Source: a virus (Duplodnaviria; Heunggongvirae; Uroviricota; Caudoviricetes). From it: DNA of 64,000 nt. A program made the position numbers and the translations under genes. The stretch is from the IMG/VR virus record IMGVR_UViG_3300000553_000006, positions 1-64,000 of that record; one strand, 5' to 3'. How positions within the stretch are numbered: the first letter of the stretch is position 1; each line of letters opens with the position of its first letter. Of the stretch, positions 6,070-56,498 are shown one piece after another. The notes under the pieces are model-generated. The model did not search any database. It worked only from the letters and a program-made list of their open reading frames with translations, and had not been told where the DNA came from.

Positions 6070-6144
6070 TGGATGGGGGTTTGGGCTTCGAACCCATCTC
6101 TCCTGATTCAAAGTCAGGTATCCTACCAACTAGACGATCCCCCA
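6070..6144 (-). tRNA. tRNA-Gln (UUG)
   Basis: Manual fold of the minus strand: acceptor TGGGGGA/ACCCCCA, T-loop GGTTCGAAGCC, anticodon arm CCTGA-CTTTGAA-TCAGG, encoded CCA. Confidence 0.75.
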
Positions 6145-6145
6145 A

Positions 6146-6219
6146 TGGCGCTCATGACGGGACTCGAACCCGCCTTACCGGATCGACAGTCCGGTCCCTT
6201 CCCTGATGGGTACATGAGC
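6146..6219 (-). tRNA. tRNA-Asp (GUC)
   Basis: Manual fold: anticodon arm CCGGA-CTGTCGA-TCCGG, T-loop GGTTCGAGTCC, acceptor GCTCATG/CATGAGC, CCA; a minus-sense TATAAATA late box lies just upstream (6229..6236). Confidence 0.75.
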
Positions 6220-6331: not shown

Positions 6332-6955
6332 CTAACTTCTCCCAAATCTCCAACCTTCAGGCAAAGATTCGGATTTATTAATCTTTTTACTACGAATTCC
6401 ATCTGTTATCCAAACTTTACCTAAATTTGGTGAACATTTTAGATTTTGAAATGGGTGAGTTCCAGTTTGGAATTGTAGTCTAGAAGAAATAGAAACTGAT
6501 CTACAAAAGTTTTCTCTGAATTTATGGTCCGTTTCTAATTTATATTTTCTTTTTGTGTTACCTAGAATAGAAGCAGCTTTGAAATCAACATTTTGTTTTT
6601 GTATCGGAACAGATAATCCATTAGTATTGATATAACCAAATCCACCTTTACCGCCAGGACAGATATTATACGTATCTTCTCGTAAACAAAACTCTTCTGT
6701 CACTAACTCTTTTTCTTTATTGTTCATTTCTTCTTCAGAGTCAAACACAAAAAGAATTTCTTTAGAGAACTTATCTAATCCATATTTCTTCTGGGATCGT
6801 TTAAGATTTTGACCAGAACCCATGTATCCATCAGTCAAAGACTTTGTTTGATGTTTACCAATATAGATCTTATTATTAATAGAACAAGTAATTTTATAGA
6901 CAGTATAAAACAAAGTACTACCCCTGGAATTATTGAAAGGTCTTAGTATGCCCAT
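6332..6955 (-). CDS. GIY-YIG homing endonuclease (seg-like), paralog of 46212..46826
   Basis: FYTVYKITCSINNKIYIGKHQT...DGYMGSG GIY-YIG core, and the C-terminal two thirds are near-identical to paralog 46212..46826 (KELVTEEF, NICPGGKGGFGYIN), giving a family-typical size of 207 aa with a putative DNA-binding tail. Confidence 0.8.
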   Translation of the reverse strand: MGILRPFNNSRGSTLFYTVYKITCSINNKIYIGKHQTKSLTDGYMGSGQNLKRSQKKYGLDKFSKEILFVFDSEEEMNNKEKELVTEEFCLREDTYNICPGGKGGFGYINTNGLSVPIQKQNVDFKAASILGNTKRKYKLETDHKFRENFCRSVSISSRLQFQTGTHPFQNLKCSPNLGKVWITDGIRSKKINKSESLPEGWRFGRS

Positions 6956-7059: not shown

Positions 7060-7146
7060 TGGAGGGTCCTGTGGGATTCGAACCCACGGTGTGCTTGCGC
7101 ATGCAGATTAAGAGTCTGCTCGTTTCGACCGCTTACCTAAAAACCC
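7060..7146 (-). tRNA. type II (long variable arm) tRNA, anticodon reads CUU as folded
   Basis: 87 nt. Acceptor GGGUUUU/AGGACCC with two G.U pairs. Ser-like D-loop AAGCGGTCGAA. Anticodon arm GCAGA-CTCTTAA-TCTGC. 15-nt variable arm. T-arm GTGGG-TTCGAAT-CCCAC. Encoded CCA. The anticodon assignment is not standard for a type II tRNA. Confidence 0.55.
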
Positions 7147-12779: not shown

Positions 12780-12850
12780 TCTTCAACCGTGGTTGGGCTC
12801 GAACCAACGACCTTCCTCTGCCTGAGGACGCTCTATCCGACTGAGCTACA
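12780..12850 (-). other. tRNA-like element (atypical; possible pseudo-tRNA)
   Basis: Canonical D-arm GCTC-AGTCGGATA-GAGC and T-loop GGTTCGAGCC, but no standard 7-nt anticodon loop or acceptor pairing could be folded. Confidence 0.35.
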
Positions 12851-12946
12851 CAAATTTACACCATTACACTTTCGTCTCTGTTTTGTCTAGAATTAACAGA
12901 GACTACAAACCTCATATTGTCATTCTAACTCAGGCGACCATTATTG

Positions 12947-14341: not shown

Positions 14342-14547
14342 CAGTTCGCCTCCAGAGCCAGAATGTCCATCGCGATGCTGTGTCCGATCTTGTGATTGGT
14401 GTCAGCGAACTTGTCCCACCAGGTGTCGCGCGCACGAGTCTGGCTCACATAATCGTACTTGTAGACCACACGGTCGGGGAGGCAGAAAGCCATACCGCAG
14501 ACGGACATCTCGATCGGGTCAACCATGGTGCGTTCCTTCATTTCCAT
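14341..14547 (-). CDS. hypothetical protein (GC-rich island)
   Basis: 68 aa; TTGCCATTAAT promoter at about 14565. Confidence 0.4.
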   Translation of the reverse strand: MEMKERTMVDPIEMSVCGMAFCLPDRVVYKYDYVSQTRARDTWWDKFADTNHKIGHSIAMDILALEAN

Positions 14548-14585
14548 GATACAAATGTACCCTGGATCCCCATTAATGGCAAGGA

Positions 14586-14867
14586 CTATTTTTGTGTCTC
14601 AGCATGAGCAGCCGGATCGCTATCCCACACACCCTCGCCGTACCCAGCTTCCCATGCGCGTCGAGCAGCAGACTCGTAGATCATGGGATCGACGTTGGAG
14701 TAGGCGAACGAAGGCTTAAACTCTTCTTCGAACCACTCTTCGAAGGTCATGTTATCGCTCCTGTATCCAACAAGACCATCCACAGGTCTCAGAGAGAGTG
14801 AACGCATACTTCTCGGCAGAGCGCCAATCCTCAAAGGTAGCGACGCATTCATCAATCGCATCACCAA
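14586..14867 (-). CDS. hypothetical protein (GC-rich island)
   Basis: 93-aa ORF; the real start may be the internal MTFEEWFEE. Confidence 0.35.
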   Translation of the reverse strand: MVMRLMNASLPLRIGALPRSMRSLSLRPVDGLVGYRSDNMTFEEWFEEEFKPSFAYSNVDPMIYESAARRAWEAGYGEGVWDSDPAAHAETQK

Positions 14868-14920
14868 TCCGATCAGGATACCAAGTTCTCATTACACGAA
14901 AGGTCATCGGTTTCATTTCC

Positions 14921-15268
14921 TCAGCCGAAATAGGTAGGAGCGATCATCAGAGACAGAGCCGAAGAAGCCGAGCAGCCACCGAAGTTAATTACAAGAGCGG
15001 GAAGACCGCAGAAGGTACCAGCTTCAACCGAGCCGTAACCACAGTCACAGTCATCACCCCAAGAGACCAACTCACGACCGGGGACGAACTCATAGAGCAT
15101 ATCCTCAGCAGCGTCATAGTCATCAGCCGCTTCAGGATCAAGGATCGAGAACGGACCGTTCACCGTTTCAAAGAACGCACCGACCAGCGAAGGGACTTCA
15201 GTCGGGAAGGACTCAGCAGCGTCAACGGTCAGAGTTTCAACCAGGTCTTCCAGCGAGAGAGCGTTCAT
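14921..15268 (-). CDS. acidic hypothetical protein
   Basis: Start MNALSLEDL at 15268 with an AAGGAAA RBS; strongly acidic (possible DNA mimic). Confidence 0.45.
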   Translation of the reverse strand: MNALSLEDLVETLTVDAAESFPTEVPSLVGAFFETVNGPFSILDPEAADDYDAAEDMLYEFVPGRELVSWGDDCDCGYGSVEAGTFCGLPALVINFGGCSASSALSLMIAPTYFG

Positions 15269-15293
15269 AGGGATTTCCTTTTCCAACTCTCTC

Positions 15294-15322
15294 ATTATCG
15301 CCCGGAATTGAATTAATAGCAA
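15294..15322 (-). promoter_or_regulatory. sigma70-like promoter, TTGCTATTAAT class
   Basis: Minus sense: -35 TTGCTA, 17-bp spacer, -10 GATAAT, followed by AGTTGG and an AAGGAAA RBS; one member of a repeated cassette. Confidence 0.55.
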
Positions 15323-15483
15323 GCGATAAAATGTGATGGCTCCCGACTGGGTTCAAAGCCGCAGCGGGAGCCATCCTGGGTCGTGGGTCTGCCCCACTCG
15401 TCCCTCGCAGGAGTATTGTCGGTCGCGGGATTATCAGCAATTACCCCACCGACAGTTGAGAATAATACTCAACCAAACTTCGA

Positions 15484-16005
15484 TTAGGCGAAGGTGAGTT
15501 CTTCAACTTCATCCACTTCCGGGATGTTATCTTCAGAGACAGCAGCCAGTTCAGCAGCTTCCTGCTTCGCCTTAGCAGCCGCAGCACGAGCGCGAGCACG
15601 CTCAAGAGCAGCCATCGCGTTGCCAGCTTGAACAACCTTCTGACCAGCGATTTCTTCCGGAGTCTTCTTGGGCTTCGCAGCCTTGACCTTCTTTTCAGCC
15701 TTCACCTTGGCAGGCTTGTTCGGATCAGCCTTGCGACCGCGAGTAACGCTGGGACCCTTGACGATCTCGGTCAGATTGGTCAGACCTTGCGTGACGCAGT
15801 AGCGGTAGTACGAAGTAGCGTTGCCGACGGTGATGCCGAGCTCATCAGCGATCAGAGCAGAGATCTCGGTTTGGTTCAGCAACGGATTGGCGTTGATCAG
15901 AGCGATAGCAGTAGCGCGCTTGTCGCCACGCTTAAAGGTCTTAGCAGCTTCAGCAGCGGCGGCAGTTTCAGCGACGGTGGTTTCGGTAGCTTCAGTCATA
16001 TTCAA
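15484..16005 (-). CDS. DNA-binding protein with HTH and Lys/Ala-rich histone-H1-like tail
   Basis: NQTEISALIADELGITVGNATSYY HTH-like segment, then KPAKVKAEKKVKAAKPKK repeats; own promoter TTGCCATTAAT-17-TAGAAT at about 16068..16099. Confidence 0.5.
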   Translation of the reverse strand: MNMTEATETTVAETAAAAEAAKTFKRGDKRATAIALINANPLLNQTEISALIADELGITVGNATSYYRYCVTQGLTNLTEIVKGPSVTRGRKADPNKPAKVKAEKKVKAAKPKKTPEEIAGQKVVQAGNAMAALERARARAAAAKAKQEAAELAAVSEDNIPEVDEVEELTFA

Positions 16006-16117
16006 GTCCTCATTTTATATCAGCGGGGAGGAATTCCCCAGGGTCACAAGGGAGTTCCTCACCCCCAACTATCACATTCTAGCTCCGGTCCCCATTAATG
16101 GCAACCAGTTTTTTCGT

Positions 16118-16303
16118 TCAGGCCGACTTTTTTTCGAAGCGGGCAGAAGCCCGAGCGGACAGACCCGGACGCTTGTTGCGCAGCTGTTTGCTGCCCAGGA
16201 CCAATCGAACGCCACAGTCCGTAGCCCCATTGAGCTTCATATAGCGGTCGATCATGTCCTGGTCGTTGGCGGTGTTCGCGCGGGGAGCAAAGCGGAGGTT
16301 CAT
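16118..16303 (-). CDS. small basic protein
   Basis: 61 aa; own promoter at 16328..16356 and an AAGGAAAGGAACACCGAATG RBS. Confidence 0.4.
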   Translation of the reverse strand: MNLRFAPRANTANDQDMIDRYMKLNGATDCGVRLVLGSKQLRNKRPGLSARASARFEKKSA

Positions 16304-16372
16304 TCGGTGTTCCTTTCCTTATGATTCATTATCGCCTATGAGCGAATTAAACGCAAGCGATATTTTTCACAT

Positions 16373-16476
16373 ACACGCGTAGGCGATTGTGACGATCAAC
16401 CCCAGGACAGCCATCACCACGATGAACTCGCACGCGATTTTGACGCCCAGCAGTCCGTTCCAGATCCAGTCGCTCA
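16373..16476 (-). CDS. predicted small hydrophobic peptide (MSDWIWNGLLGVKIACEFIVVMAVLGLIVTIAYACM)
   Basis: Not in the ORF track (<60 aa); translated by hand; own promoter TTGCTATTAAT-17-GATAAT at 16503..16531. Confidence 0.3.
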
Positions 16477-16639
16477 TTTCCGTTTCCTTCAGCCTATGAT
16501 TCATTATCGCTCAGACCTGAATTAATAGCAAGCGCCATTTTCATATCGTTAAACGATAAAGAATCCAGCGCATAAATATAATGTGAGTCGCGAGCCACCA
16601 CAACTCCACTCACTCTAGTCCAACCAAGGAGAGACCAGC

Positions 16640-17020
16640 ATGAGTACTTATGACACCAAGAAGTTCGTCAACAAGCGTAAAAAGACTACTAAGTCTAATC
16701 ATCGATCAATTTACGCTAAAAACTACGGACCAATCCCAAAAGATGAAAAGGGCTTCTCTTATGATATTCATCATATAGACGGAAACCATTTGAACAATAA
16801 TCCAAACAATCTTCAAGCATTGTCAATGCAAGAACACCATGATATACACATTGCTCAAGGAGATTATGGAGCAGCATCTCTAATACGAAAGCGAATGTCA
16901 GCTACTATGAGAACATCTACCTGTCGTTGGTGTGGTCATGAAGATTTAGAAATGAACATTCAATATAAACACAATCTCCATTGTTCACTGGTTAATGATA
17001 TATTCGATATGTTTAATTAA
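16640..17020 (+). CDS. HNH homing endonuclease
   Basis: YDIHHIDGNHLNNNPNNLQALSMQEHHDIH HNH motif; conserved HE leader upstream. Confidence 0.75.
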   Translation: MSTYDTKKFVNKRKKTTKSNHRSIYAKNYGPIPKDEKGFSYDIHHIDGNHLNNNPNNLQALSMQEHHDIHIAQGDYGAASLIRKRMSATMRTSTCRWCGHEDLEMNIQYKHNLHCSLVNDIFDMFN

Positions 17021-20157: not shown

Positions 20158-20182
20158 TTGGGTTTCCTTTTCCAACTTTCAT

Positions 20183-20211
20183 ATTCTAGCTCGGGGACGG
20201 ATTAATAGCAA
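20183..20211 (-). promoter_or_regulatory. sigma70-like promoter, TTGCTATTAAT-17-TAGAAT
   Basis: Read directly from the sequence; a second near-identical copy (TTGCTTTTAAT-17-TAGAAT) lies 80 bp upstream at 20263..20291. Confidence 0.55.
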
Positions 20212-20366
20212 GCGGTGTTTTTTATGTCCCGGCGTTCGCTACCATCCGTCCCCGACTATCACATTCTAACCGGAGAGCGGATTAAAAGCAAGCAATTTTA
20301 TATAAATAGAATGCTAGTCGCGAGTTGGCGCTCCACTAGCTCTATTCTGGTTGAGGAGAACAGCAC

Positions 20367-21002
20367 ATGAGTATTTATTACGTTTACGCATACCTTCGCA
20401 AATCGAACGGTATCCCTTACTATATCGGAAAAGGTAAAGGAGACAGAGCGTTTAGAAAACATACTTTCGTATCAGTTCCAAAAGACAAATCTAAAATAGT
20501 GTTCTTAGAAACTAATCTTACGGAGATTGGCGCTCTAGCATTAGAGAGACGATACATCCGTTGGTATGGTCGTAAAAACTTGAATACAGGAGTCCTTCTA
20601 AACAAAACAGATGGAGGAGAAGGAACAGCAGGAAGAATTCCTACACCACAATCTCCTGAATCAAATATAGCAAGAGGATCTGGATTCAGAGGTAAGAAAA
20701 GACCAGAACATGCTGCTAAAATGAAAGAGTATTATCGTTCAGGTAAACTGAATCAACTAGCAGTAGCTAGAAAACATACTGAAAAAACTAAAGATAAGCT
20801 ACGTAAACCTAAATCTAACAAACTAAACTATCAGAACAGGAAATGGTATCACAGTTTGCTCCTAAAGAAAGAAGCTTGCGTGAGTACCATTCCTGACTGG
20901 ACAGATGTTAAACTAGGTAGATACCCTAATTCCGGAGACAGGTTACGCGAGCCATCTTTTCCCAACGTTCAGGCGAAGTCTTACGAAGAGCAGCCAGCTT
21001 AA
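20367..21002 (+). CDS. GIY-YIG homing endonuclease
   Basis: [29 protein letters not shown]; paralog of 30000..30596 and 49150..49701; conserved leader. Confidence 0.8.
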
Positions 21003-25322: not shown

Positions 25323-25703
25323 TTAAACAGCAGTCAGTTCGATATGAACATCTTTTCCATAGAGTACAGGATCGTACCCGTCGACAATAAACCCAGGCGA
25401 ACAACCGCAACCGCAGCCAGCCTTCTGGCTCCAGCGATAGTTTACATTCTCCAGAGTAACACCAGCGTTGCTCAATCCTTCACGGAGAGCTTGCCGATAG
25501 ACATTAATAGGACGAGAGCGCCTGTTCTCCAGGTTCTCGATAATAGATTCGCCCTTCGGCCAGATATAAACGCGAGACTTAGTCCGATACCGAGCGCGCG
25601 GCTCTTGACGAATCGGAACAAACTTCGTTTCGGTTTGCATTTTGGAGTTCCCTTCAACCATGTTCATAATATACGGTGGAACGCCATTAATAGCAAGCCC
25701 CAA
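25323..25703 (-). CDS. hypothetical protein
   Basis: 126-aa ORF; promoter motif at about 25686. Confidence 0.45.
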   Translation of the reverse strand: MGLAINGVPPYIMNMVEGNSKMQTETKFVPIRQEPRARYRTKSRVYIWPKGESIIENLENRRSRPINVYRQALREGLSNAGVTLENVNYRWSQKAGCGCGCSPGFIVDGYDPVLYGKDVHIELTAV

Positions 25704-28815: not shown

Positions 28816-29448
28816 ATGTCAAGCCCAAATGCATATGTGTATAAAATAACGAATACGGTAACTAATGAATTTTATATCGGATACAGATACAAAAACCAAA
28901 GACAAAACGTTCTTCCAGAAAATGATTTGTTTGTTACATATTTCTCTTCATCAAAACGAGTTCTATCTGACATAGAGAAATATGGGAAGTCAAATTTTAT
29001 TTATGAGATAATTTTCCAAGACCAAAATTCTCTATTGTGTTGGGAAAAAGAACAGGAAACAATCAAAGAACTCTGGGGAAATTCTCTTTTACTTAACTCG
29101 AAATATAATGATGTCTCTAGTAAAACAGAACATTACCGAAGAGTTGGTATTGTATCAGAAGAAGCAAGAAAGAAAATGAGTGTTGCAGGAAGAGGGAAAA
29201 CAAAGTCTCTCGAGCATAGAAGAAAAATTGCCGAATCTAATAGAGGTAGAGTAAAATCTCTAGAAGAGAGACAAAAGATATCTAACTCAAGAATTGGGAA
29301 ACCAACAAATAAAGGTAAGTCTCCTCCAAAATTTTCCTGTCCTCACTGCAACAAAGTAGCATCTTGGGCAAATTTACAAAAGTGGCATAATGACAAATGT
29401 AAATTTTATGTCGTTACCTCTTCAATTTCCGAGAAACCTTCCTCGTAA
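28816..29448 (+). CDS. GIY-YIG homing endonuclease with NUMOD3 repeats
   Basis: YVYKITNTVTNEFYIGYRYKN; SLEHRRKIAESNRGRVKSLEERQKIS repeats. Confidence 0.75.
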   Translation: MSSPNAYVYKITNTVTNEFYIGYRYKNQRQNVLPENDLFVTYFSSSKRVLSDIEKYGKSNFIYEIIFQDQNSLLCWEKEQETIKELWGNSLLLNSKYNDVSSKTEHYRRVGIVSEEARKKMSVAGRGKTKSLEHRRKIAESNRGRVKSLEERQKISNSRIGKPTNKGKSPPKFSCPHCNKVASWANLQKWHNDKCKFYVVTSSISEKPSS

Positions 29449-29999
29449 GTGGGATACTCGAAGTTCTTCAACATCGAGTTGATCACATCTTGCGGAATAG
29501 ATTTTCCATCACGAGAATTAAGACGACGCTTCCATTCGTTCTCTTCAGGAGTATTGAAGACAACAGCGTAGAACTTATATCCCTTGTTCTTCAGTCGATC
29601 GATGATGCGCTTACGTGACTTCACCGACATGTTGGTGCGATCGATGTAGATATCGATGTTGTTCTTAGCATCAGCATCAATGTCGCGCCAAAAGATTCGT
29701 TCAGCGAACTGAATCAATTCCTTGAATGAAGCATCGTAAGTCGTACCACAAAGATCACAGATAGTCTGAATGATATTGTCGGTAGAATGAGTCCAGATTT
29801 GAACCTCATTCTTTTTGACCCAAGTCGACTTACCGACGCCAGGAGCACCGATCAGTATGAAACAGTTAGCCATTTCAAATTCCTTTATTACGCGATTATA
29901 ATACCGCACAACCGATTTAATGTCAATCAAAATATAAATAATGATGGCCACGATGCTACCAACATCTGCCATCTCTAATGCTAACAGGAGCACCAGCAC
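29406..29999 (-). CDS. P-loop polynucleotide kinase-like protein
   Basis: [13 protein letters not shown] Walker A; size and context match a Pnk kinase domain. Confidence 0.55.
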
Positions 30000-30596
30000 A
30001 TGACTATTTATTACGTCTATGCATATTTGAGAAACTCAGACAACTCACCATATTACATCGGTAAAGGTACAGGAAATCGTGCATATAAAAGACACGGAAG
30101 AATCAGTGTACCTAATGATAAAACAAAAATTAAAATTCTAGAAACTAATCTAACAGAGATTGGCGCTCTAGCATTAGAGAGACGATACATCCGTTGGTAT
30201 GGTCGTAAAGATTTAGAAACAGGAATATTACTTAATTTGACAGACGGAGGTGAAGGATTACAAGGACTCAAAAGAACTCCAACTCACAAAGCAAATATCT
30301 CGAAGTCTTTGACAGGTAAACCTAAAAAGAAACACACTCAAGAATGGAAGGGTCATATGTCTTCAGTAATGAAGGGAAAAATTCCTTGGAATAAAGGGAT
30401 ACCGCTGTCAAAAGAACACTTAGAGTTAAGAACAAAAGCAGTCAAAGGTATGAGATGGTGGACGAACGGTGAAACAGAAAAGAAATCCTTTGTTCAACCC
30501 GACTCTTCATTCCACATTGGAAGATTAGAAAAGTTTCGCCCACCATCTCAATTAAAGCGTATTCCTTCAAACCAGGTAGAAGCCAGAACTTCATAG
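30000..30596 (+). CDS. GIY-YIG homing endonuclease
   Basis: [29 protein letters not shown]; paralog of 20367 and 49150. Confidence 0.8.
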
Positions 30597-32899: not shown

Positions 32900-33583
32900 T
32901 TACCTCTTGTTATAATATTCGCGAATAACATCCATTGCGCCATCTATATAATCATCTCGTTTCTTTATAAAAACTTGACCTGGCGCGGGTGAGTCTGAAG
33001 CCATTACGATTACTATCTGTGGACAACATATTCCAGTCCGTTCTTCCATCATGACGGAGTATATAGCTGTCTGATAAAAGTAGGATAGAATCCAATCAGC
33101 TCTCTTAGGTTTGTTTGCTGACTTGAAATCTAGAATAGAGTTTCTTCCAGACCAACGAACAACAGCGTCAACACGACCTCCAACCTTAAGATAATCAGAG
33201 GTCAGAGGTGTCTCTACACCATAAACAATCTCGATGTTCTCGTCTAGAATGTGTTTAATCTTACCGAAAAGATCCAGCGTTGTTGGCATTACACCACGAC
33301 GATACTCTTTATTCAGTAGATAGTTCTCGCAAACAGTGTGAAGAGCTGTACCTCTGTCGGCTGCTGCTTTGCTGATTCTCTTGGCTTCTTCCTCACCAAC
33401 TCTAGCTTTCCATTCATCAAGTCCAGTCTTATCCATCACACCCATAACTGTAGTAACAGATGGATACCTCGCCCCGTCCGGCGAGGTATAAAATCTTCCA
33501 TATGATAAAGTTTCAACCAATGGATCAGGCAAATCTACTAATTGATGTTCAAACATGTATTCTTCCAATATTCCAAGAACCAT
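32900..33583 (-). CDS. PD-(D/E)XK nuclease-family protein
   Basis: GRVDAVVRWSGRNSILDFKSANK (D-x13-D-F-K). Confidence 0.45.
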   Translation of the reverse strand: MVLGILEEYMFEHQLVDLPDPLVETLSYGRFYTSPDGARYPSVTTVMGVMDKTGLDEWKARVGEEEAKRISKAAADRGTALHTVCENYLLNKEYRRGVMPTTLDLFGKIKHILDENIEIVYGVETPLTSDYLKVGGRVDAVVRWSGRNSILDFKSANKPKRADWILSYFYQTAIYSVMMEERTGICCPQIVIVMASDSPAPGQVFIKKRDDYIDGAMDVIREYYNKR

Positions 33584-34238
33584 CAGCAGATTCTGTAAAT
33601 CTTAGATAGTTTCTTTTTCCATCATTATACCATTTTCTTCCAGTGAGATAAGAATAATCGATATTCTTTCTAGCATCAGAAAGTTTTTTGCAAGTTTCTA
33701 GAGAAGGTTTCTTACCTTTATGAGATAAACTATTTTTCTTTCTTTGATCCTCAGTTAGTTTTCTTCCTGTGTTTGCAACACTTATTTTTCTTTTATGTTC
33801 ATCAGAAAAAATTTTACCTTTATTTGCAGCATTACCTATGCTTGCTTTTGCTATTTTGTCTTTTGTTTCTTGAGATTGTTTAAATCCTGGAATTCTATAG
33901 AAATCTTTGGCTCCATTTGATTTATTGAGCCAAAGATTTGATTTAGCTGCATTAAGTTTTCTTAATACAGCGTTTTCCCAAAATAAACATTTTTCCTTTG
34001 ATGTAAATGTCTTTCTGATTTCTATCACATCAGGCTCACCATATTGGTGTCTAAATGCAGCAACAACCTTTGAAGAAGTGAAATACGTTACCCAAAGATC
34101 GCTTGGGTTCGCTGTTTTGTTAAATTGGGCGCCATAATACCACTTATTGTGATTGCGCCAACCTATAAGGTATGTGTATGGGACATAAATAGTCATAGCT
34201 GGTTCTCCTCGTAGAACTAGAGCCTGGGGGAAGTGCAA
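33549..34238 (-). CDS. GIY-YIG homing endonuclease (seg-like) with NUMOD3 repeats
   Basis: YVPYTYLIGWRNHNKWYYGAQ; SQETKDKIAKASIGN repeats. Confidence 0.65.
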   Translation of the reverse strand: MHFPQALVLRGEPAMTIYVPYTYLIGWRNHNKWYYGAQFNKTANPSDLWVTYFTSSKVVAAFRHQYGEPDVIEIRKTFTSKEKCLFWENAVLRKLNAAKSNLWLNKSNGAKDFYRIPGFKQSQETKDKIAKASIGNAANKGKIFSDEHKRKISVANTGRKLTEDQRKKNSLSHKGKKPSLETCKKLSDARKNIDYSYLTGRKWYNDGKRNYLRFTESADGSWNIGRIHV

Positions 34239-34263
34239 GTTCCGCGCCAGGCGTTTTTACTAT

Positions 34264-35010
34264 TTATATGTAACCTAATTGGTCAGCTGCGATAATAAAT
34301 TTACGAACGATATCACTACGAACAATATCAGAGTATCCGAACTCAACATCACCAAAGTCACCCATACGTTGAATAACTTTACGGAAGCGTTGAATGTCTT
34401 CACGACGTTCTGATTGATAATGGTTCTTTAGATCGCTTTGTTTGTAGTCACCGCAGAAGATAATCTTAGAATTCTTACCAAGACGAGTCATGATAGCGAA
34501 CAACTCGTTCCATTCTAGGTTTTGACACTCGTCTACGATAACACAGCAGTTCTCTAGTGTGATACCACGAATGTATGAAGTAGGCATGAACTCAACGAGA
34601 CCTTTGTTCTTAAGGTAGTCGTAGGCGTCGCCTCTATTATACAACTCTTGAAAAATTCCATAGTATGGAGCTTCAAGAACCTTAGTCTTTTCTTTTAGAT
34701 TACCTGGGAGGAATCCGACACTCTTCGATGGTTCTGATGAACGGACGATGATAATTTTGTCGAATGTACGATTCTCAAACAGATTTTTACACGCGAGATA
34801 TATTGACAAGAAAGATTTACCGGAACCAGGACATCCATGTAGAAATAGATGTTTTCCTTGTTCATATTCATCAAAGGTAAGACGTTGATTTTCCGTTAGT
34901 GGAGTAATCGAACGCAACACAAAATTGAGACTTGTATTTGGACCTTCTCCGTTACCGCTTCTTTGTTGTTTACGACGTTCTTTTCTTGTTAATCTTTCTT
35001 GAGCCAGCAT
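34264..35010 (-). CDS. phoH: PhoH-like ATPase
   Basis: LHGCPGSGKSF Walker A; 248 aa. Confidence 0.75.
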   Translation of the reverse strand: MLAQERLTRKERRKQQRSGNGEGPNTSLNFVLRSITPLTENQRLTFDEYEQGKHLFLHGCPGSGKSFLSIYLACKNLFENRTFDKIIIVRSSEPSKSVGFLPGNLKEKTKVLEAPYYGIFQELYNRGDAYDYLKNKGLVEFMPTSYIRGITLENCCVIVDECQNLEWNELFAIMTRLGKNSKIIFCGDYKQSDLKNHYQSERREDIQRFRKVIQRMGDFGDVEFGYSDIVRSDIVRKFIIAADQLGYI

Positions 35011-36851: not shown

Positions 36852-36971
36852 TAGAAACTCCTAACTTTGTAATACATTATACCGTCCTAAGACATTAAAG
36901 TCAACTAAATAAATGTGAGTCGCGGATGGCAGTCCCACTCACTCTAGTCCTCTCTTTCAAGGAACCAGCAC

Positions 36972-37439
36972 ATGATTATATATGATCCTATCGCAACCTT
37001 TCTTGGTGTAACACCATGTTACGTAGATTACGATAATCTACCAATAACTCCATCTAATCATACTCACAATCCTCTTTGGTTACGTCCGGGTGGATGGAAA
37101 CATGATGATGAAGCGAAGAAAAAGATGAGTAAAGCTAAGAAAGGTAAACCAGGACCAAAGAAATCTAAAGAAACAAAGCAAAAAATGGGTGAATCACATA
37201 GAGGTATACCAAGACCAGATGTTAGTCTTCTCCATAAAGGTAAAATCTTATCTGATGAGACAAAAGAAAAGATTAGAATAGCGAGAGCTAAACAAATTTC
37301 ACAACCACATAATGAAGAAACTAAGTTAAAAATATCTTTAGCAAAGACAGGCAAAAAGCGCAAACCTTTTACCGAAGAGCACAAAAGAAAGATGAGTGAG
37401 TCAGCTAGAATTCGCCGACTGAAGTCATCAAATTCTTAA
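36972..37439 (+). CDS. NUMOD3-repeat DNA-binding protein (homing-endonuclease-derived; no clear catalytic domain)
   Basis: Repeated KxKxSxAxxGK blocks; shares the conserved HE leader. Confidence 0.55.
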   Translation: MIIYDPIATFLGVTPCYVDYDNLPITPSNHTHNPLWLRPGGWKHDDEAKKKMSKAKKGKPGPKKSKETKQKMGESHRGIPRPDVSLLHKGKILSDETKEKIRIARAKQISQPHNEETKLKISLAKTGKKRKPFTEEHKRKMSESARIRRLKSSNS

Positions 37440-44142: not shown

Positions 44143-44216
44143 TGGCATGGGTACTAAGAGTCGAACTCAGGCTTACAGTTTTGGAGACTGTCGTGCTACC
44201 GTAACACTTTACCCAC
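44143..44216 (-). tRNA. tRNA-Trp (CCA)
   Basis: Anticodon arm ACAGT-CTCCAAA-ACTGT, T-loop GAGTTCGACTC, encoded CCA. Confidence 0.7.
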
Positions 44217-44526
44217 ACATGTATTTCTTATTTTTACCAGCGTATGTCTCAGTTTGAGAATGGCAGTTAGGACAAAGAAAGGTTAAATTATCTAATCTAT
44301 TGTCGTTATTTACACCATTCTTGTGTTCTAACTGAAGAGAAATAGATTTCCCATTCCACTCATCAGAAAGTCCGCAATCTGAACAAACATAATCTATCAG
44401 TTTTTGCTTAATTACTCTTTCTTTTAACCTATGTCTAGGATAATTTGAATTTTCAACAAAAACAGTATCATTAGAAAATTTTCTACTAGCTGCAGATAAT
44501 AGCAACCCTTGTATATTTCTTGGCAT
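44209..44526 (-). CDS. HNH endonuclease
   Basis: CSDCGLSDEW...HKNGVNNDNRLDNLTFLCPNCH; minus-sense TATAAATA late box at about 44550. Confidence 0.7.
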   Translation of the reverse strand: MPRNIQGLLLSAASRKFSNDTVFVENSNYPRHRLKERVIKQKLIDYVCSDCGLSDEWNGKSISLQLEHKNGVNNDNRLDNLTFLCPNCHSQTETYAGKNKKYMCG

Positions 44527-44583
44527 AAGCTATCTCCTCTTTAGAGATATTTATATACCGTCGGTTCTAAGAACCGAAGAAAA

Positions 44584-44658
44584 TGGTGGAGGATAAGGGA
44601 ATCGAACCCTTGCTTCATGCTTGCAAAGCACGAGTGCTACCATTATCACCAATCCCCC
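44584..44658 (-). tRNA. tRNA-Ala (UGC)
   Basis: Anticodon arm CGTGC-TTTGCAA-GCATG; G3.U70 identity pair present; CCA. Confidence 0.7.
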
Positions 44659-44664
44659 ATTATA

Positions 44665-44740
44665 TGGTGCCGCAACGAGGAATCGAACCCCGGACATCCT
44701 GCTTACAAGGCAGGCGCTCTTCCAACTGAGCTATTACGGC
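44665..44740 (-). tRNA. tRNA-Thr (UGU)
   Basis: Anticodon arm CCTGC-CTTGTAA-GCAGG; D-arm GCTCAGTTGGAAGAGC; CCA. Confidence 0.75.
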
Positions 44741-44787
44741 ATAATTACTCTTTATTTATAAATATCTAAGCAGCTAAGGAGAAGAAT

Positions 44788-45147
44788 ATGATTGAACATA
44801 TCGAAAAAATCAACACAAAGATCGCACTTACGGTAACAGATGTCGTAGGTACAATGTGGTGCGCGTATATTTTCGCAGTTCTAGCAGTACTCAGTCTTCC
44901 TACAGCTATTGCTGGTGGTATCGCAACTCTAATTTCTTGGGTCGCTCAAACTTTCCTTCAACTCGTACTTCTATCAGTCATCATGGTTGGACAACGTATT
45001 CAAAGCGAGAGAACTGAGAAGCGAGACGAAGAAGATCACGTAACCATCATGAACGAATTCGCAGAAATTAAACAAATGCATAACGAAATAAAAGAAATCT
45101 TGGCTCTTGAAAAGCAAGATGCTGCTCAAGAGAAGCGTGGAGTCTAG
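44788..45147 (+). CDS. membrane protein
   Basis: 119 aa, two TM helices; TATAAATA late box at 44757..44764 and an AAGGAGA RBS. Confidence 0.55.
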   Translation: MIEHIEKINTKIALTVTDVVGTMWCAYIFAVLAVLSLPTAIAGGIATLISWVAQTFLQLVLLSVIMVGQRIQSERTEKRDEEDHVTIMNEFAEIKQMHNEIKEILALEKQDAAQEKRGV

Positions 45148-45154
45148 AGAGTAT

Positions 45155-45230
45155 TGGAGTGCACGACAGGATTCGAACCTGCATTAAACTGAGTTGCAAT
45201 CAGTTGACTAACCATTCATACCACGTGCAC
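45155..45230 (-). tRNA. tRNA-Cys (GCA)
   Basis: Anticodon arm ACTGA-TTGCAAC-TCAGT; acceptor GTGCACG/CGTGCAC; CCA. Confidence 0.7.
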
Positions 45231-45810
45231 GTAATTTTCTATATCTTAATCCTTTACTCCATCCCGTCATATTTAGGAATTCTTCTTCAGTTACCATTTT
45301 AGATTTCTGCAAATCATCATTAGAAACCCAAAATTTACCTTTACTGTGATGATGTTCTAACAGTTTTTTAGAAAGTGCTGGACCATTTTTCCTATTAATT
45401 TCAGTCATCTTTTCACAAAACTTGTCACGATATGACTGATCAATTTTGATTCTATTCCCGTGAATTAAATGTTGATCAACTTTATGATTTAATCCAAATT
45501 TATTCACATAATAGAAATTTGCAGGTCCACCCAATTTTACATTATACACATCATTTCTATCTAAAAATTCTTCCGTTACTAATTCTATTTCTCTATCATA
45601 CATATTTTCTTCAGTATCAAACCACTCTATAATTTCTTTAGAAAAATTCTCAATTCCATACTTTTTTATAGCAGATTTAATACCTTTTCCAGATCCCATA
45701 TATCCATCATCTATATTAGAAGTTTTATGGACCCCAACATATATTTTGCCGTTCAGTCTATTTCTAATTTGATATAGATAGTAATACATAAGAATCTCCA
45801 TTCTCTTCAT
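45208..45810 (-). CDS. GIY-YIG homing endonuclease
   Basis: YYYLYQIRNRLNGKIYVGVHKT...DGYMGSG; its stop overlaps the 5' end of tRNA-Cys; late box at about 45822. Confidence 0.75.
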   Translation of the reverse strand: MKRMEILMYYYLYQIRNRLNGKIYVGVHKTSNIDDGYMGSGKGIKSAIKKYGIENFSKEIIEWFDTEENMYDREIELVTEEFLDRNDVYNVKLGGPANFYYVNKFGLNHKVDQHLIHGNRIKIDQSYRDKFCEKMTEINRKNGPALSKKLLEHHHSKGKFWVSNDDLQKSKMVTEEEFLNMTGWSKGLRYRKLRARGMNG

Positions 45811-45848
45811 TACTATTTATATAAACGCAGACCGTTACCTAGAAGATA

Positions 45849-45923
45849 TGGCACCCACATCCAGAATCGAACTGGAATCGACCGTTTAGAAGACGGTAGC
45901 TCTGTCCGTTGAGCTATGCGGGC
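45849..45923 (-). tRNA. tRNA-Arg (UCU)
   Basis: Anticodon arm ACCGT-CTTCTAA-ACGGT; CCA. Confidence 0.7.
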
Positions 45924-45929
45924 TCAAAA

Positions 45930-46004
45930 TGGTACTGGAGCCCAGAATTGAACTGGAGACTCAGGGGACACAATCCTGCATTTTACCAATTAAACTACTC
46001 CAGC
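45930..46004 (-). tRNA. tRNA-His (GUG), probable
   Basis: Anticodon loop TTGTGTC in a CAGGA/CCCTG stem with one mismatch; CCA. Confidence 0.55.
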
Positions 46005-46202
46005 TCACTCTTGATCAATAACCAGATAGCAAAATCTATGAACAATATCGAAAGACTCGATTACCTTAATCGCGCGCTCATCGTTTGCTTTTGCTTTCAC
46101 ATGTAGATCAAGAATATAATCTCGTAGACGAAAAAAATTGTAAGCATCTTGGAGAAGATCACCAAGATCCAGAACTTGTTCAACAGTCACATTCTGTTTC
46201 AT
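46005..46202 (-). CDS. hypothetical protein
   Basis: 65-aa ORF. Confidence 0.35.
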   Translation of the reverse strand: MKQNVTVEQVLDLGDLLQDAYNFFRLRDYILDLHVKAKANDERAIKVIESFDIVHRFCYLVIDQE

Positions 46203-46211
46203 AATATATCC

Positions 46212-46826
46212 TTAAAGAGTCTTTCGACCTTTATTATAACCTAGTGCCAAATAATAATCAAGCTGTTCTTTTTTAATTTTAAGAATACGTTGTCCATTAT
46301 TTATCCAACAAGTACCAAATTGAGAATTTTTAGATCCTTTTTGGTGTTCTTTTTCGTGCAAAGTATTTTTTCTTTTTAATTTGGCATCTTCAGTATTGGC
46401 AAATAATGAAGCAATCTTTATATTATTCTTTCTAGCTCTTAGTTTATTTTCACTTTCAATTTTAAGATTTAATTTATTCAATTTTCCTGAAATTTTTCCA
46501 CCCAATCTATATGCTTCAATAGGAACCAATCCATTTGCATTGATATACCCAAATCCACCTTTACCACCAGGACATAGATTATAGGTATCCTCTCGTGTAC
46601 AAAACTCTTCGGTAACCAATTCTTTCTCTTTAGCATTCATTTCTTCTTCCGAATCAAATACAAAGAGAATTTCTTTAGTAAACTTATCTAATCCATATTT
46701 CTTTTGGGCTCTACGTAATGATTGACCAGAACCCATATATCCATCATCCAAATCTTTTGTTTGATGTTTACCAATATAGATTTTGTTGTTTACAGAACAA
46801 GTAATTTTGTAGATAGTATAAAACAT
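46212..46826 (-). CDS. GIY-YIG homing endonuclease, paralog of 6332..6955
   Basis: MFYTIYKITCSVNNKIYIGKHQTKDLDDGYMGSG. Confidence 0.8.
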   Translation of the reverse strand: MFYTIYKITCSVNNKIYIGKHQTKDLDDGYMGSGQSLRRAQKKYGLDKFTKEILFVFDSEEEMNAKEKELVTEEFCTREDTYNLCPGGKGGFGYINANGLVPIEAYRLGGKISGKLNKLNLKIESENKLRARKNNIKIASLFANTEDAKLKRKNTLHEKEHQKGSKNSQFGTCWINNGQRILKIKKEQLDYYLALGYNKGRKTL

Positions 46827-46833
46827 ATTAGTG

Positions 46834-46883
46834 TCCCAGGAAATATAGAAAGGTCTTAGTATGCCTATTTATATTTCCTGGGA
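46834..46883 (-). promoter_or_regulatory. leader hairpin (14-bp perfect stem) upstream of the GIY-YIG gene
   Basis: Arms TCCCAGGAAATATA/TATATTTCCTGGGA around the same conserved loop as at 6926..6965; contains a minus-sense TATAAATA. Confidence 0.55.
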
Positions 46884-46889
46884 CTGAAG

Positions 46890-46979
46890 TAGTCCTGCTA
46901 GGACTCGAACCTAGATCGTTCACCCGTCCGGTGATCATGCCTTATAAGGACACCGCTCTGCCAATTGAGCTACAAGACT
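46890..46979 (-). tRNA. type II tRNA with 22-nt variable arm, anticodon reads UAU as folded; no encoded CCA
   Basis: Acceptor AGTCTTG/CAGGACT, D-arm GCTC-AATTGGCA-GAGC, anticodon arm GTGTC-CTTATAA-GGCAT (2 G.U), T-arm CTAGG-TTCGAGT-CCTAG. Confidence 0.5.
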
Positions 46980-46987
46980 ACATAATT

Positions 46988-47072
46988 TGGTGCGAATGAG
47001 AGGACTCGAACCTCCACCCCTTTCGGGACTGGTTTCTAAGACCAGCGCGTCTACCAATTCCGCCACACTCGC
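46988..47072 (-). tRNA. tRNA-Leu (UAG)
   Basis: Anticodon arm CTGGT-CTTAGAA-ACCAG, long variable arm, CCA; 85 nt. Confidence 0.75.
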
Positions 47073-47186
47073 ATTATTTTCCGTCTAGTAAAAGACAAAG
47101 AAAGCCTACTATCCAAACCCAAAGTGGCGCATTATAGTGCCAACATACCAGAAAGCCAAAAATAGCAAGCATTTCTCATCCTCAAA

Positions 47187-47262
47187 TGGTGCCGACGGCA
47201 GGGATCGCACCCGCATCTGCTGGGTTTCAACCAGCCGCTAAGACTACATCAGCTACGACGGC
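47187..47262 (-). tRNA. tRNA-Phe (GAA)
   Basis: Anticodon arm GCTGG-TTGAAAC-CCAGC; CCA. Confidence 0.65.
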
Positions 47263-47269
47263 GTAATAT

Positions 47270-47346
47270 TGGAAGGGGATACGGGACTCGAACCCGCATT
47301 AGTGGATTGAAAGTCCACTGTCCTAGTCCAATTAGACGAATCCCCC
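47270..47346 (-). tRNA. tRNA-Glu (UUC)
   Basis: Anticodon arm GTGGA-CTTTCAA-TCCAC; T-loop GGTTCGAGTCC; CCA. Confidence 0.7.
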
Positions 47347-48821: not shown

Positions 48822-49149
48822 GATATTTAGTTTTCCCTAGTAAAGTTCAGCGAGAATGCTGTCTGCCCAATCAAACCAATCGAGCTCTTCACGCTCGACC
48901 TTTTCGTTGTTACGGATCTTCCGCATAATCTCGCAGTACTTAGCCTGCATGGCTAAGAACCCTTGTTCGATCATCGGAAACTTAAAGACTTTGATATCCA
49001 TCTCAATCCCTCCTACAACGGTTACATACTTAGTATACCGTCAGGATGAATTAATAGCAAGTCCCAAAATTATTTTTTTGATATAAATAGAATGCTAGTC
49101 GCGGACTGCCATCCCACTAGCTCTAGTCCTCGTTCAAAGAGCCCAGCAC

Positions 49150-49701
49150 ATGTTTATTTATTACGTCTATGCTTACCTTCGTAAATCTGATGGATCTCCA
49201 TATTACATCGGAAAAGGTAAAGGAAAGAGAGCGTTTGACAAAAGTCATTCTGTCTCTGTACCTAAAGACAAATCAAAAATAATTTTCCTCGAAACACATC
49301 TATCTAATCTGGGTGCATGCGCATTAGAACGTAGATATATTCGCTGGTATGGACGTAAAGATTTAGGAACAGGTATCCTTCTTAATAAGACAGAAGGAGG
49401 GGATGGAAATTCTGGAAAAAGATCTAAATTGTGGAGAGAAAACCACAGTAAAATAATGTCCGGAGAAAACAACCCTTCTAAGAGACCTGAAGTAAAAGAA
49501 AAACAAAGAATGACTGATAAATCTTATATGCAGAAAGATGACTACAAGAACAAAATCTCCCAAGCAAATAAGAAAGCAATCATTACTCCAAACGGTAAAT
49601 TCAAATCAGTTGGAGAAGCTATCTCTAGTTACAATACGACTCCACACTACTTTTACAAGATGATGAAATCTAGCCCGAAGGAGTTTTATACTGTGCTTTA
49701 A
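49150..49701 (+). CDS. GIY-YIG homing endonuclease
   Basis: [29 protein letters not shown]; conserved leader at 49083..49149. Confidence 0.8.
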
Positions 49702-55175: not shown

Positions 55176-55747
55176 ACTTTTCCTACTCTACAATTGTCAA
55201 AATGCCATCTTTTCATACCACTACCATATCCAGATTTACCACATTTATTACATGTATGTTTTTGTTGAGAATGGTGTGTGCCAGAATCTAGTTGTTTCTT
55301 TTGCGCTTTTCTTTGTGTATCACCACCAATAAAGTGATGAGTTCCGTTTTCTATTCTTTTCTGTGTAGTCTTTCTAGAAATTTCGCCACCAATAAAGTGG
55401 TGTGTTCCAGCATCAACTCTTTTCTTAGCAGATATTTTAGCGACTTCACCACCAAGAAAATTATGTGTACCTTCTTCAACTCGTTTTCTAGAATTTTTTC
55501 TAGCTATCTGAGATATTATTTCTCCAGACATATTCATTCTAATTAATACTGCTTGTGCAGCTGCCCAGTCTTCTTGGTCATAATGAATTTTATAGTGGTC
55601 ATCAATAGATAATGCAATCAAGTTGCTAATATCGTTATTTTGATTGTTCCCATCCTTGTGATGAATATCAAATGTTCTACCGTATTCATCACAAGGAATA
55701 GGTCCATATACACTTTCGTATAATCTTCTGTAATCAGTCATAAGCAA
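55160..55747 (-). CDS. HNH homing endonuclease
   Basis: TFDIHHKDGNNQNNDISNLIALSIDDHYKIH; late box at about 55768. Confidence 0.7.
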   Translation of the reverse strand: MLMTDYRRLYESVYGPIPCDEYGRTFDIHHKDGNNQNNDISNLIALSIDDHYKIHYDQEDWAAAQAVLIRMNMSGEIISQIARKNSRKRVEEGTHNFLGGEVAKISAKKRVDAGTHHFIGGEISRKTTQKRIENGTHHFIGGDTQRKAQKKQLDSGTHHSQQKHTCNKCGKSGYGSGMKRWHFDNCRVGKVCQEL

Positions 55748-55802: not shown

Positions 55803-56498
55803 TTATTCCTTAGCTAGACTAGCCTTAACTGCGCGAGTATCTACAGCCTTACCAGATACGGTGTAATCTGCAGAAGCAGTAGCATAGAAGTTCATGGTTG
55901 CATCCATGTTACGTAGAGAGGTGTTGATCACCTTACCGGCAGATAGACCGTAGTTTTGAGCAACAGTATCAGCGTTAAACTCAGCACCAAGGAATAGAAC
56001 TTCCCATCCACGAGCCTGACAAGTAGCAATACGATCACGAATTGATGCCAGATTGTATGTCTTGCTTGAGTTTTCTTCACCATCAGTCATGATGATAATT
56101 ACAGTCTTTTCGTTGTTATTCTTGTCAGCAAGATTAAGCAGCTTCGCAGTTGAGTCATAAAGTGGAGTTCCGCCGCGTGGTGAAGTTTCGTTGATACCAA
56201 CGTCCTTAAACTTCTTGATACTTACTTTATCACGAATAACATCAAAGCTGTTTGGATCAACTACTTCAGCGTTAAACGCTCTTGCCATTTGAGCACCACC
56301 AAGACGAACTTGTCCACCCCAATTCGATGGTCCGTTTGAGTCAAAGGTTGCAAGAGTAATCTCAGCGTCAGTTCCAGCAGTTCTTAGTCCATGTACGTAG
56401 GTATTGATAGCGCCAATTGCACCTTCCCATCGAGAACCAGACATAGAGCCTGAGCGATCAAGTAGAATATATGCAGATAGCTTATTTGATTTTGCCAT
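55803..56498 (-). CDS. von Willebrand factor A (vWA) domain protein
   Basis: MIDAS motif LLDRSGSMSG plus downstream TDGEE. Confidence 0.6.
   Translation of the reverse strand: MAKSNKLSAYILLDRSGSMSGSRWEGAIGAINTYVHGLRTAGTDAEITLATFDSNGPSNWGGQVRLGGAQMARAFNAEVVDPNSFDVIRDKVSIKKFKDVGINETSPRGGTPLYDSTAKLLNLADKNNNEKTVIIIMTDGEENSSKTYNLASIRDRIATCQARGWEVLFLGAEFNADTVAQNYGLSAGKVINTSLRNMDATMNFYATASADYTVSGKAVDTRAVKASLAKE

Follow-up and report, generated by a model that had tools for sequence, protein, structure and literature searches.

The 64,000-nucleotide (nt) stretch of viral DNA analysed here (Caudoviricetes; IMG/VR record IMGVR_UViG_3300000553_000006, positions 1 to 64,000), which we refer to as the window, carries six copies of a module of about 95 bp at the 5′ ends of homing endonuclease genes (HEGs), and the hairpins of this module are under selection on the antisense strand of the endonuclease gene. 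We propose, in a reading that we hold to be evenly balanced between right and wrong, that the module is a pair of converging late promoters giving rise to a late cis-antisense RNA of about 65-90 nt that would limit endonuclease expression. Five copies lie on the plus strand, where an initial annotation of this DNA had correctly located five leaders, each with a T4-late-like box, a covarying hairpin and a purine-rich Shine-Dalgarno (SD) sequence; its count of copies has to be raised to six, as a motif scan turned up another on the minus strand with a third stem variant (CCTGG/CCAGG). The covariance model R1, based on 11 module copies, scores the six at 45-51 bits, E about 1e-9, and otherwise matches only a weak hairpin in the window. 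Such an occurrence is far beyond chance. One of the six genes is of the HNH_3 type, three are GIY-YIG (IYYVYAY...PYYIGKG), one has NUMOD3 motifs only and one contains NUMOD3 (YTYLIGW), and with the Mob-like HNH genes found elsewhere this upholds the earlier description of a portable cassette common to unrelated endonuclease families.

Read along the gene, the module consists of a late box, 3-5 nt, helix P1, 1 nt, helix P2, 6-8 nt and a late box on the opposite strand. P1 has an outer stem of 6 bp (G-NNN-GU with AC-NNN-C), beyond which follow a bulged C, a G-C pair, a second bulged C, an inner stem of 3-4 bp and a loop of 4-9 nt; in the five plus-strand window copies it begins 2-4 nt past the forward box. 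P2 joins the seven bases from 2 nt past P1 (CTAGTCN in CTCTAGTCC) to seven bases ending in CAG near the start codon, and encloses the SD within a loop of 6-26 nt. Its arms are, for example, CUAUUCU/AGAACAG in copy 2, CUAGUUC/GAACCAG in copy 6, and CUAGUGU/ACACCAG, CUAUGUC/GACACAG and CUAUAAC/GUUACAG in three copies from other contigs (L124, L243 and L261). The element that had been described as a CAGCAC-ATG start context is better understood as part of this helix, since its CCAG is the 3′ arm whose partner is the CTAGTCN of CTCTAGTCC; in copy 1 the letters are in fact CCAGC-ATG, and copy 2 has CTCTATTCT in place of CTCTAGTCC. In type A modules CCAGC stands 0-3 nt ahead of the AUG, and in type B just after it (ATGACCAGC, AUGACCAGC; N-terminus MTSxxIY), and its presence on both sides of the AUG marks it as a nucleotide-level motif and not as a start context.

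Aligned and analysed for covariation, as the initial annotation had suggested, the leaders have both helices compensated at most pairs across 78 distinct copies. The covariation set comprised the stems alone in a gap-free alignment of 75 distinct antisense sequences (18 pairs, 1350 cells), in which 97.0% of the cells are standard pairs on the antisense strand, compensatory changes occur at 15 of the 18 pairs, and the covariation score of 0.721 compares with 0.192 for shuffles, none of 500 reaching it; slid registers give 31-51% pairing. The inner stem of P1 covaries as well (GAG/CTC, GGA/TCC, GATG/CATC, GGAA/TTCC), and all four combinations of outer and inner stem are present among copies 1-4. 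Both bulged residues of P1 are invariant in 78/78 copies, C and C on the sense strand and G and G on the antisense strand. The hairpin of the fifth plus-strand leader, once taken to be different, has the same architecture, with CAC in place of CGC and a compensating U opposite. Other structural candidates were set aside on inspection: a pseudoknot between CCAGC and the P1 loop has no consistent complementarity, CCAGC as a Chi-like site has varying flanks (ACCAGC, CCCAGC, TCCAGC), mimicry by CTCTAGTCC of 16S rRNA, of a T-loop or of a group I intron comes down to short coincidences, and an outer helix 'P0', formed by the forward box with the reverse box's complement, is without covariation at its variable first positions.

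An A.C mismatch on one strand is a G.U pair on the other, and the distribution of the two kinds of mismatch assigns the structure to a strand. Over the 78 copies the seven P2 pairs comprise 398 Watson-Crick pairs, 121 sense A.C or C.A and 27 other combinations, without a single sense G.U, and pairs 0-9 of P1 comprise 766 Watson-Crick pairs and 14 sense A.C or C.A, with neither sense G.U nor other combinations. Outside the apical pair of P1 this amounts to 135 A.C against no sense G.U, and at the third P2 pair 78/78 copies have an A facing a C on the HEG-sense strand. P2 is thereby 72.9% paired in sense and 95.1% in antisense. Folding of the antisense RNAs from the six window copies gives -16 to -25 kcal/mol, with the antisense helices P2′ and P1′ making up the minimum free energy (MFE) fold in 5/6 (copy 5, -22.8 kcal/mol, z = -2.7; copy 6, -25 kcal/mol, z = -2.4, with the tail GUUUUUAC), and P1 is present in the antisense MFE fold of copy 1. 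In sense, the folds come to -13 to -19.5 kcal/mol and contain no P2, and single-sequence folds of the sense leaders (z from -1.8 to +0.65) are uninformative by themselves. Asymmetry, pairing and folds together lead us to place the structure on the strand antisense to the endonuclease gene. Selection on a hairpin, as first claimed, is thus borne out by compensatory changes at all 11 P1 pairs, but its assignment to the endonuclease mRNA is not supported by the mismatches.

The module is flanked by late-promoter-like boxes that face each other. The forward box, (T/C/A)ATAAATA or xCTAAATA, lies 2-16 nt upstream of P1 and 3-5 nt upstream in 63/78 copies. On the other side, ATTTAT or ATATAT occurs 6-8 nt downstream of CCAGC in types A and B and with any protein family, usually encoding Ile-Tyr, and the reverse complement of these codons, (A/C)ATAAATA (NATAAATA), is a T4-type late box. 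At least 7 of its 8 positions are matched in 63/78 copies, and in 62/78 its distance to the first base of P2′ is 6-8 nt. In T4 the late box stands at -13 to -6 from the start site, relatives of T4 vary at its first base, and Aeh1 uses CTAAATA (PMC1524935, Nolan et al.); the variants on both strands of the module match those reported for T4 relatives. A gap of 6 nt would place the start on the G that faces the conserved C in CCAGC, which would explain why this base, outside P2, is conserved. The reverse box falls within coding sequence, and 42 module-bearing genes with the peptide IYY(V/I)YAY supply an internal control for codon choice. Ile is encoded by ATT in 37/42 and the first Tyr, which lies inside the box, by TAT in 38/42, as compared with 8/42, 17/42 and 22/42 for the second, third and fourth Tyr. 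No general preference for AU-rich codons early in the gene could make TAT fall from 90% to 19% between adjacent codons, and the pattern supports maintenance of the putative reverse promoter by synonymous codon choice, that is, by selection at the nucleotide level.

We propose the following model for the module. From the forward box the HEG mRNA would start at the base of P1 or 1-2 nt within it, and from the reverse box the antisense RNA would start on the G facing the C in CCAGC, giving a predicted layout of 5′-G-[P2′]-A-[P1′]-A(C/U)UUUUAUUUAU. P2′ would be a 5′-terminal hairpin of 7 bp (CUGNNNN/NNNNUAG) with the invariant G.U and an anti-SD loop, and P1′ a hairpin of 11 bp with two invariant bulged G residues. 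The mean free energy of P1′ is -10.8 kcal/mol, the tail averages 5.7 U in 10 nt, and a lenient terminator scan flags copy 1 on the minus strand; with this U-rich tail P1′ may end the transcript at about 65-90 nt, failing which the RNA would run into the next gene. The two converging late transcripts would overlap by about 65 nt, and the predicted RNA, which covers the SD in every copy, would be fully complementary to the HEG 5′ untranslated region (UTR) with its SD and, in type B, also to the AUG. Such an RNA may repress translation of the HEG, trigger cleavage of the duplex or both, collision of the promoters may add transcriptional interference, and the net effect would be that a potentially toxic nuclease is kept low and late. 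We infer the firing of either box, the ends of the RNA and its repressive effect from the sequence, and by analogy with known systems we infer that repression of endonuclease synthesis would be the most economical function. The late, translationally gated switch first imagined for these leaders would retain its likely purpose, limiting endonuclease expression, but by means of an antisense RNA instead of a switch acting in cis within the leader. The bulges and the G.U recall features that shield other antisense RNAs from RNase III and speed pairing with the target. Together with the CUAGAG junction these invariant features suggest an additional binding partner. Since they stay fixed where the stems covary freely, the bulged Gs, the G.U and CUAGAG might even be a docking site for one trans-acting phage or host factor on all antisense RNAs of HEG cassettes, forming a 'HEG regulon' or an antitoxin-like layer of immunity, an idea that we regard as decidedly improbable.

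Beyond the window, 72 further distinct copies were found in viral and metagenomic contigs, 50 of them reached through similarity of the endonuclease proteins alone. The pattern GTCGCG-N10-18-CCACT-NN-CTCTAGT has 7 matches in IMG/VR, and all seven have perfect but differing complementary arms, a late box, and CCAGC close to the start codon. A similar pattern in metagenomes returned 53 matches, 18 of which are true loci separated from the remainder by a clear gap. In 596 Gb of bacterial and archaeal genomes there were 19 pattern matches, none with complementary arms, and at the pattern stringency used the element is not in prophages or cellular genomes. As an unbiased sample, IMG/VR was searched with a protein alignment of the GIY-YIG subfamily only and the upstream regions were then scanned with R1, which matched on the gene's strand 20-110 nt upstream in 58/80 subfamily loci (50 distinct sequences); at least 4 more of these loci have divergent copies by eye. 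The genes downstream of the module are, across the set, Mob-like HNH (phrog_655), Seg-like GIY-YIG (phrog_314) and a few short or unassigned open reading frames (ORFs), the metagenomic HEGs being assigned by PHROGs since Pfam was mostly blank. Two other searches were less productive: a loose pattern, TCGCGN{12,22}CTCTAGTCC, gave chance matches only in IMG/VR (L001-L118, disregarded), and a hairpin-independent pattern, CTCTAGTN{8,32}ACCAGCACATG, gave one true locus (L122/L123), the others being chance. That locus (L122 7865-8020, the same as L123 and L167, on a contig of 210,571 bp) has a full module and a perfect CCAGCAC-ATG followed by a 51-aa ORF without endonuclease resemblance by eye, which may be a truncated HEG or a different cargo.

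The window phage belongs to the T4 superfamily, with a gp61 primase 48% identical to those of phiM12 (Sinorhizobium) and cyanophages, and it encodes RnlA, Rnl2, DNA ligase and NrdA; megablast and blastn against cultured phages found no close relative of the window. The sole cultured carrier of the module that we found is Pseudoalteromonas phage vB_Psh_XG4 (PP712099.1, about 56140-56205; L287 2437-2500), in which the first P2 pair is switched (GUAG.../...CCAC), the A.C pair is retained and the forward box is atypical, and whose GenBank record carries no annotation. The module is not present at the HEG homologues of cyanophages S-SRM01, S-N03, Sf-CH5 and ACG-2014f or in RSP15. Homologues of the GIY-YIG HEG in several cyanophage records (L153, L290 and others; S-SRM01, B3, B23, Sf-CH5) are annotated as 'translation initiation factor 2', a label that looks like a propagated annotation error. 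Scanning the window with Rfam 15 at the gathering thresholds returned only 14 tRNAs, two copies searched on both strands at E <= 10 gave chance snoRNA or miRNA matches or nothing, and our literature searches found no description of the module.

Several observations weigh against a late antisense RNA. Both boxes are consensus matches only; the reverse box is weak (6/8) in 15/78 copies, among them window copies 1 and 3, which have the weakest of the six, and XG4 has no recognisable one. The P1′ tail opens with A(C/U), making termination uncertain, and simple antisense pairing leaves the invariant bulges, G.U and CUAGAG unexplained. Relatedness among the sequences means that the cell counts given above exceed the number of independent events, and covariation alone would fit RNA or single-stranded DNA equally. 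The antisense strand is, finally, also the strand of the flanking phage genes at most loci, so that the structure could serve their transcripts. The module HEGs are opposite to both neighbours at 5/6 copies in the window and at about 20/22 loci of the first set, and in the protein-derived set, where ORF calling was crude, at 40/57 module loci with 7 co-oriented (2 and 7, respectively, for homologues without a module); the cultured cyanophage homologues, which have no module, are co-oriented with their neighbours. These counts fit the idea that the module equips flanking genes with a replacement late promoter and a protective 5′ hairpin leader, or with a terminator or insulator, so that a HEG inserted in reverse would have no polar effects. 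Promoters serving downstream genes are known from within T4 HEGs (PMC2988022), a sigma-70-like promoter and a gene on the minus strand follow each window module within about 50-130 nt, and P1′ with its U-rich tail resembles a terminator. We nonetheless find service to the flanking genes, though a serious rival, unlikely, because the orientation of the module is fixed to the HEG and not to the neighbours, because co-oriented copies (window copy 6, L233, L237 and L280) keep both the structure and the reverse box, and because the bulges, G.U and CUAGAG do not vary although different loci have unrelated genes downstream.

The model of the initial annotation, in which the hairpins act in the HEG mRNA, here taken with P1 as a 5′ stabiliser or protein operator and P2 as a weak gate on the ribosome binding site (RBS) and AUG, draws on the position of the forward box, from which the mRNA would begin at P1 in the 63 copies with a spacing of 3-5 nt, on the enclosure of the SD and, in type B, of the AUG by P2, and on the partial formation of mirror-image hairpins in sense RNA; RBS-sequestering hairpins are moreover a known regulatory theme of T4 HEGs (PMC2988022). 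Against it stand the A.C mismatches described above, with no sense G.U outside the apical pair of P1, and a sense P2 that reaches 73% pairing and does not appear in the sense MFE folds; neither the codon bias of ATTTAT nor its fixed distance from CCAGC finds an explanation. The T4 logic by which a late transcript lacks the 5′ arm fails here too, with the late box upstream of both arms, and we judge hairpins acting in the mRNA to be unlikely. Still less credible, and in our view very improbable, are hairpins in single-stranded DNA complementary to the HEG coding strand, recognised by a DNA-processing protein in replication priming, recombination or homing after the manner of attC sites or IS200/IS605 ends. 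DNA hairpins tolerate G.T as well, T4-type replication exposes much single-stranded DNA, and the invariant extrahelical bases of the module recall those of attC. Late boxes at start-site distance on both sides, one of them kept by synonymous codons, point instead to transcripts, the loop content is simply the SD, and no integrase or HUH partner gene was noticed nearby, where no systematic search was made.

The antisense RNA that we favour has partial parallels in known systems. In the T4-like cyanophage S-PM2 an antisense RNA, CfrI, is expressed across the start of the HEG F-CphI (Millard et al. 2010, cited in PMC2984593; PMC5931967). Annotated as misc_RNA 136544-136741 in NC_006820, it resembles the predicted RNA in belonging to a T4-like phage, in lying antisense to the 5′ end of a free-standing HEG, and in starting inside the coding region and crossing start codon and leader. 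It differs in being about 200-225 nt long and also covering the psbA 3′ end, and its HEG is of the EndoVII type and co-oriented with its neighbours. Homology was rejected: an R1 scan of S-PM2 100-150 kb gave a best score of 10.8 bits elsewhere and none at 136544-136741, and inspection of the leader found only a terminator and an ATAAATA box. CfrI is the nearest biological precedent, analogous and not homologous. In IS10/Tn10, RNA-OUT and RNA-IN are transcribed from two promoters that face each other where a gene of the mobile element begins, and RNA-OUT, a small and stable antisense stem-loop that can pair with the RBS region, limits the element's own enzyme. The module shares with it, at the sequence level, an opposite-strand box at the 5′ end of the target, a conserved antisense structure, and complementarity of the predicted RNA to the RBS and, in type B, to the start codon; the differences are a bacterial transposon with sigma-70 promoters as against a phage with late promoters, one hairpin as against two, and an overlap here of about 65 nt.

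T4-type HEGs (I-TevI/II/III, segB, Aeh1 mobE) are controlled by an RBS-sequestering hairpin with an internal late promoter, so that late transcripts skip the 5′ arm (PMC2988022). A late promoter directly upstream of the HEG, a hairpin around the SD and restriction of the nuclease as likely purpose are common to both, but in the module the late box lies upstream of both hairpins and late transcripts keep them, for which reason the gating logic known from T4 does not carry over; its HEG is, further, usually not co-transcribed with upstream genes, and its helices are selected on the opposite strand. Drawn in sense, P2 would put the SD in the loop or at the stem end, with the invariant A.C and incomplete pairing already noted. 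Dassa et al. (2009) described hairpins with TATAAATA upstream of metagenomic 'fractured gene' HEGs (PMC2677866). These too are marine metagenomic phage HEGs with conserved, mutually pairing 5′ UTR motifs beside a late box; they are set apart, by their description, by UTRs of 27-51 nt, a late box inside the hairpin, and HEGs co-oriented between split-intein halves (PMC2677866).

Features of the modules and their surroundings in the 64-kb window (positions are those of the window)
Feature	Position	Strand	Remarks
Copy 1 forward late-promoter-like box CATAAATA	16571..16578	+	predicted to drive HEG mRNA; 4 nt from P1 base
Copy 1 helix P1	16583..16613	-	11 bp, two invariant bulges; R1 match 51 bits, covariation
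Copy 1 P2 arm CTAGTCC, within conserved CTCTAGTCC motif	16615..16621	-	pairs with 16632-16638
Copy 1 P2 loop, contains HEG SD AAGGAG	16622..16631	+	would read as anti-SD in antisense RNA
Copy 1 P2 arm AGACCAG, the former 'start context'	16632..16638	-	invariant sense A.C = antisense G.U
Copy 1 predicted antisense start (G opposite C)	16639	-	6 nt past reverse box; placed by the spacing rule of PMC1524935
Copy 1 reverse late-box-like CATAAGTA, 6/8	16645..16652	-	inside HEG codons 2-5
Copy 1 HNH_3 homing endonuclease gene, 126 aa	16640..17020	+	Pfam PF13392, E = 1.6e-11
Copy 2 module	20301..20379	-	forward box TATAAATA 20301-20308; P1 20313-20340
Copy 2 P2 arms	20342-20348 (CTATTCT), 20357-20363 (AGAACAG)	-	fully compensated relative to consensus
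Copy 2 predicted antisense start; reverse box AATAAATA	20364; 20379-20372	-	
Copy 2 GIY-YIG-type HEG, 211 aa, IYYVYAY...PYYIGKG	20367..21002	+	570 confirmed IMG/VR homologues
Copy 5 module	29933..30012	-	forward box TATAAATA 29933-29940; P1 29943-29973, CAC variant
Copy 5 P2 arms	29975-29981 (CTAATGC), 29990-29996 (GCACCAG)	-	
Copy 5 predicted antisense start; reverse box AATAAATA	29997; 30012-30005	-	
Copy 5 GIY-YIG-type HEG, 198 aa	30000..30596	+	
Copy 6 module	34184..34268	+	HEG on minus strand, hence predicted antisense RNA on plus strand
Copy 6 forward box; P1	34268-34261; 34252-34222		
Copy 6 P2 arms	34220-34214 (CTAGTTC), 34205-34199 (GAACCAG)		
Copy 6 predicted antisense start; reverse box CATAAATA	34198; 34184-34191		
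Copy 6 HEG, 215 aa, NUMOD3-containing, YTYLIGW...WYYG type	33549..34196	-	ATG 34196
Copy 3 module	36904..36984	-	forward box ACTAAATA 36904-36911; P1 36915-36942
Copy 3 P2 arms	36944-36950, 36962-36968	-	
Copy 3 predicted antisense start; reverse box CATATATA	36969; 36984-36977	-	
Copy 3 gene with NUMOD3 motifs only, 155 aa	36972..37439	+	Pfam NUMOD3 E = 1.4e-14; phrog_314 'homing endonuclease'
Copy 4 module	49082..49162	-	forward box TATAAATA 49082-49089; P1 49094-49121
Copy 4 P2 arms	49123-49129, 49140-49146	-	
Copy 4 predicted antisense start; reverse box AATAAATA	49147; 49162-49155	-	
Copy 4 GIY-YIG-type HEG, 183 aa	49150..49701	+	
Possible degenerate P1 remnant, TCGGT-CGC-...-C-ACCGA	15416..15458	+	R1 16.5 bits, E = 0.12-0.22
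ATTAATAGCAAG sites, examples	16521-16532, 20201-20212, 20281-20292, 49050-49061, 15312-15323, 25686-25697	+	
Sigma-70-like promoter TTGCTA-N17-TAGAAT	20211-20183	-	for minus-strand genes
Sigma-70-like promoter TTGCCA-N17-TAGAAT	16104-16076	-	for minus-strand genes
G+C-richer regions	about 14500-16500, 20180-20300		few convincing ORFs
Common downstream sequence ACTATCACATTCTAG/A of repeated promoter units	about 16066-16080, 20250-20266		
Further HEG-like genes	28816-29448	+	
Further HEG-like genes	6332-6955, 45208-45810, 46212-46826, 55160-55747	-	
tRNA genes, fourteen, clustered	44146-47346, 6073-6219, 7063-7146, 12784-12855	-	

The weak hairpin at 15416-15458 is without the CTCTAG motif, a late box or a downstream gene, and may be the remnant of a lost cassette. 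About 20 plus-strand sites have ATTAATAGCAAG, which on the minus strand is CTTGCTATTAAT, the extended -35 of sigma-70-like promoters, and several HEG modules lie directly upstream of such promoters. The two G+C-richer regions of the table contain G+C-rich inverted repeats and the repeated promoter units, and look like an array of short early transcription units. With the five further HEG-like genes, four GIY-YIG/SegE-like and one HNH-like by N-terminal sequence, the window has about eleven in total; at least 4 of these five have a (T)ATAAATA box close upstream but lack the P1/P2 module, and 4/5 point the same way as their neighbours. Between the tRNA genes lie inserted GIY-YIG endonuclease genes, as segB lies in the tRNA region of T4.

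Only for a few T4 genes is it understood how phages can live with many free-standing homing endonucleases. If the proposed model is true, one portable module would explain how unrelated endonucleases are inserted backwards into operons together with a late promoter of their own, and would have them checked by an antisense RNA whose promoter hides in synonymous codon positions. The asymmetry between G.U and A.C, joined to the internal codon controls, offers a textbook case for assigning a structure to a strand, and the model makes a clear prediction, a late RNA of about 65-90 nt from the G opposite CCAGC. Were the docking site to exist as well, the phage, or competing selfish elements in mixed infections, could control many unrelated endonucleases together. 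On the proposed model the module would also represent a new and abundant family of phage RNAs, with at least 78 distinct copies, a presence at 58/80 loci of one HEG subfamily, and no Rfam model.

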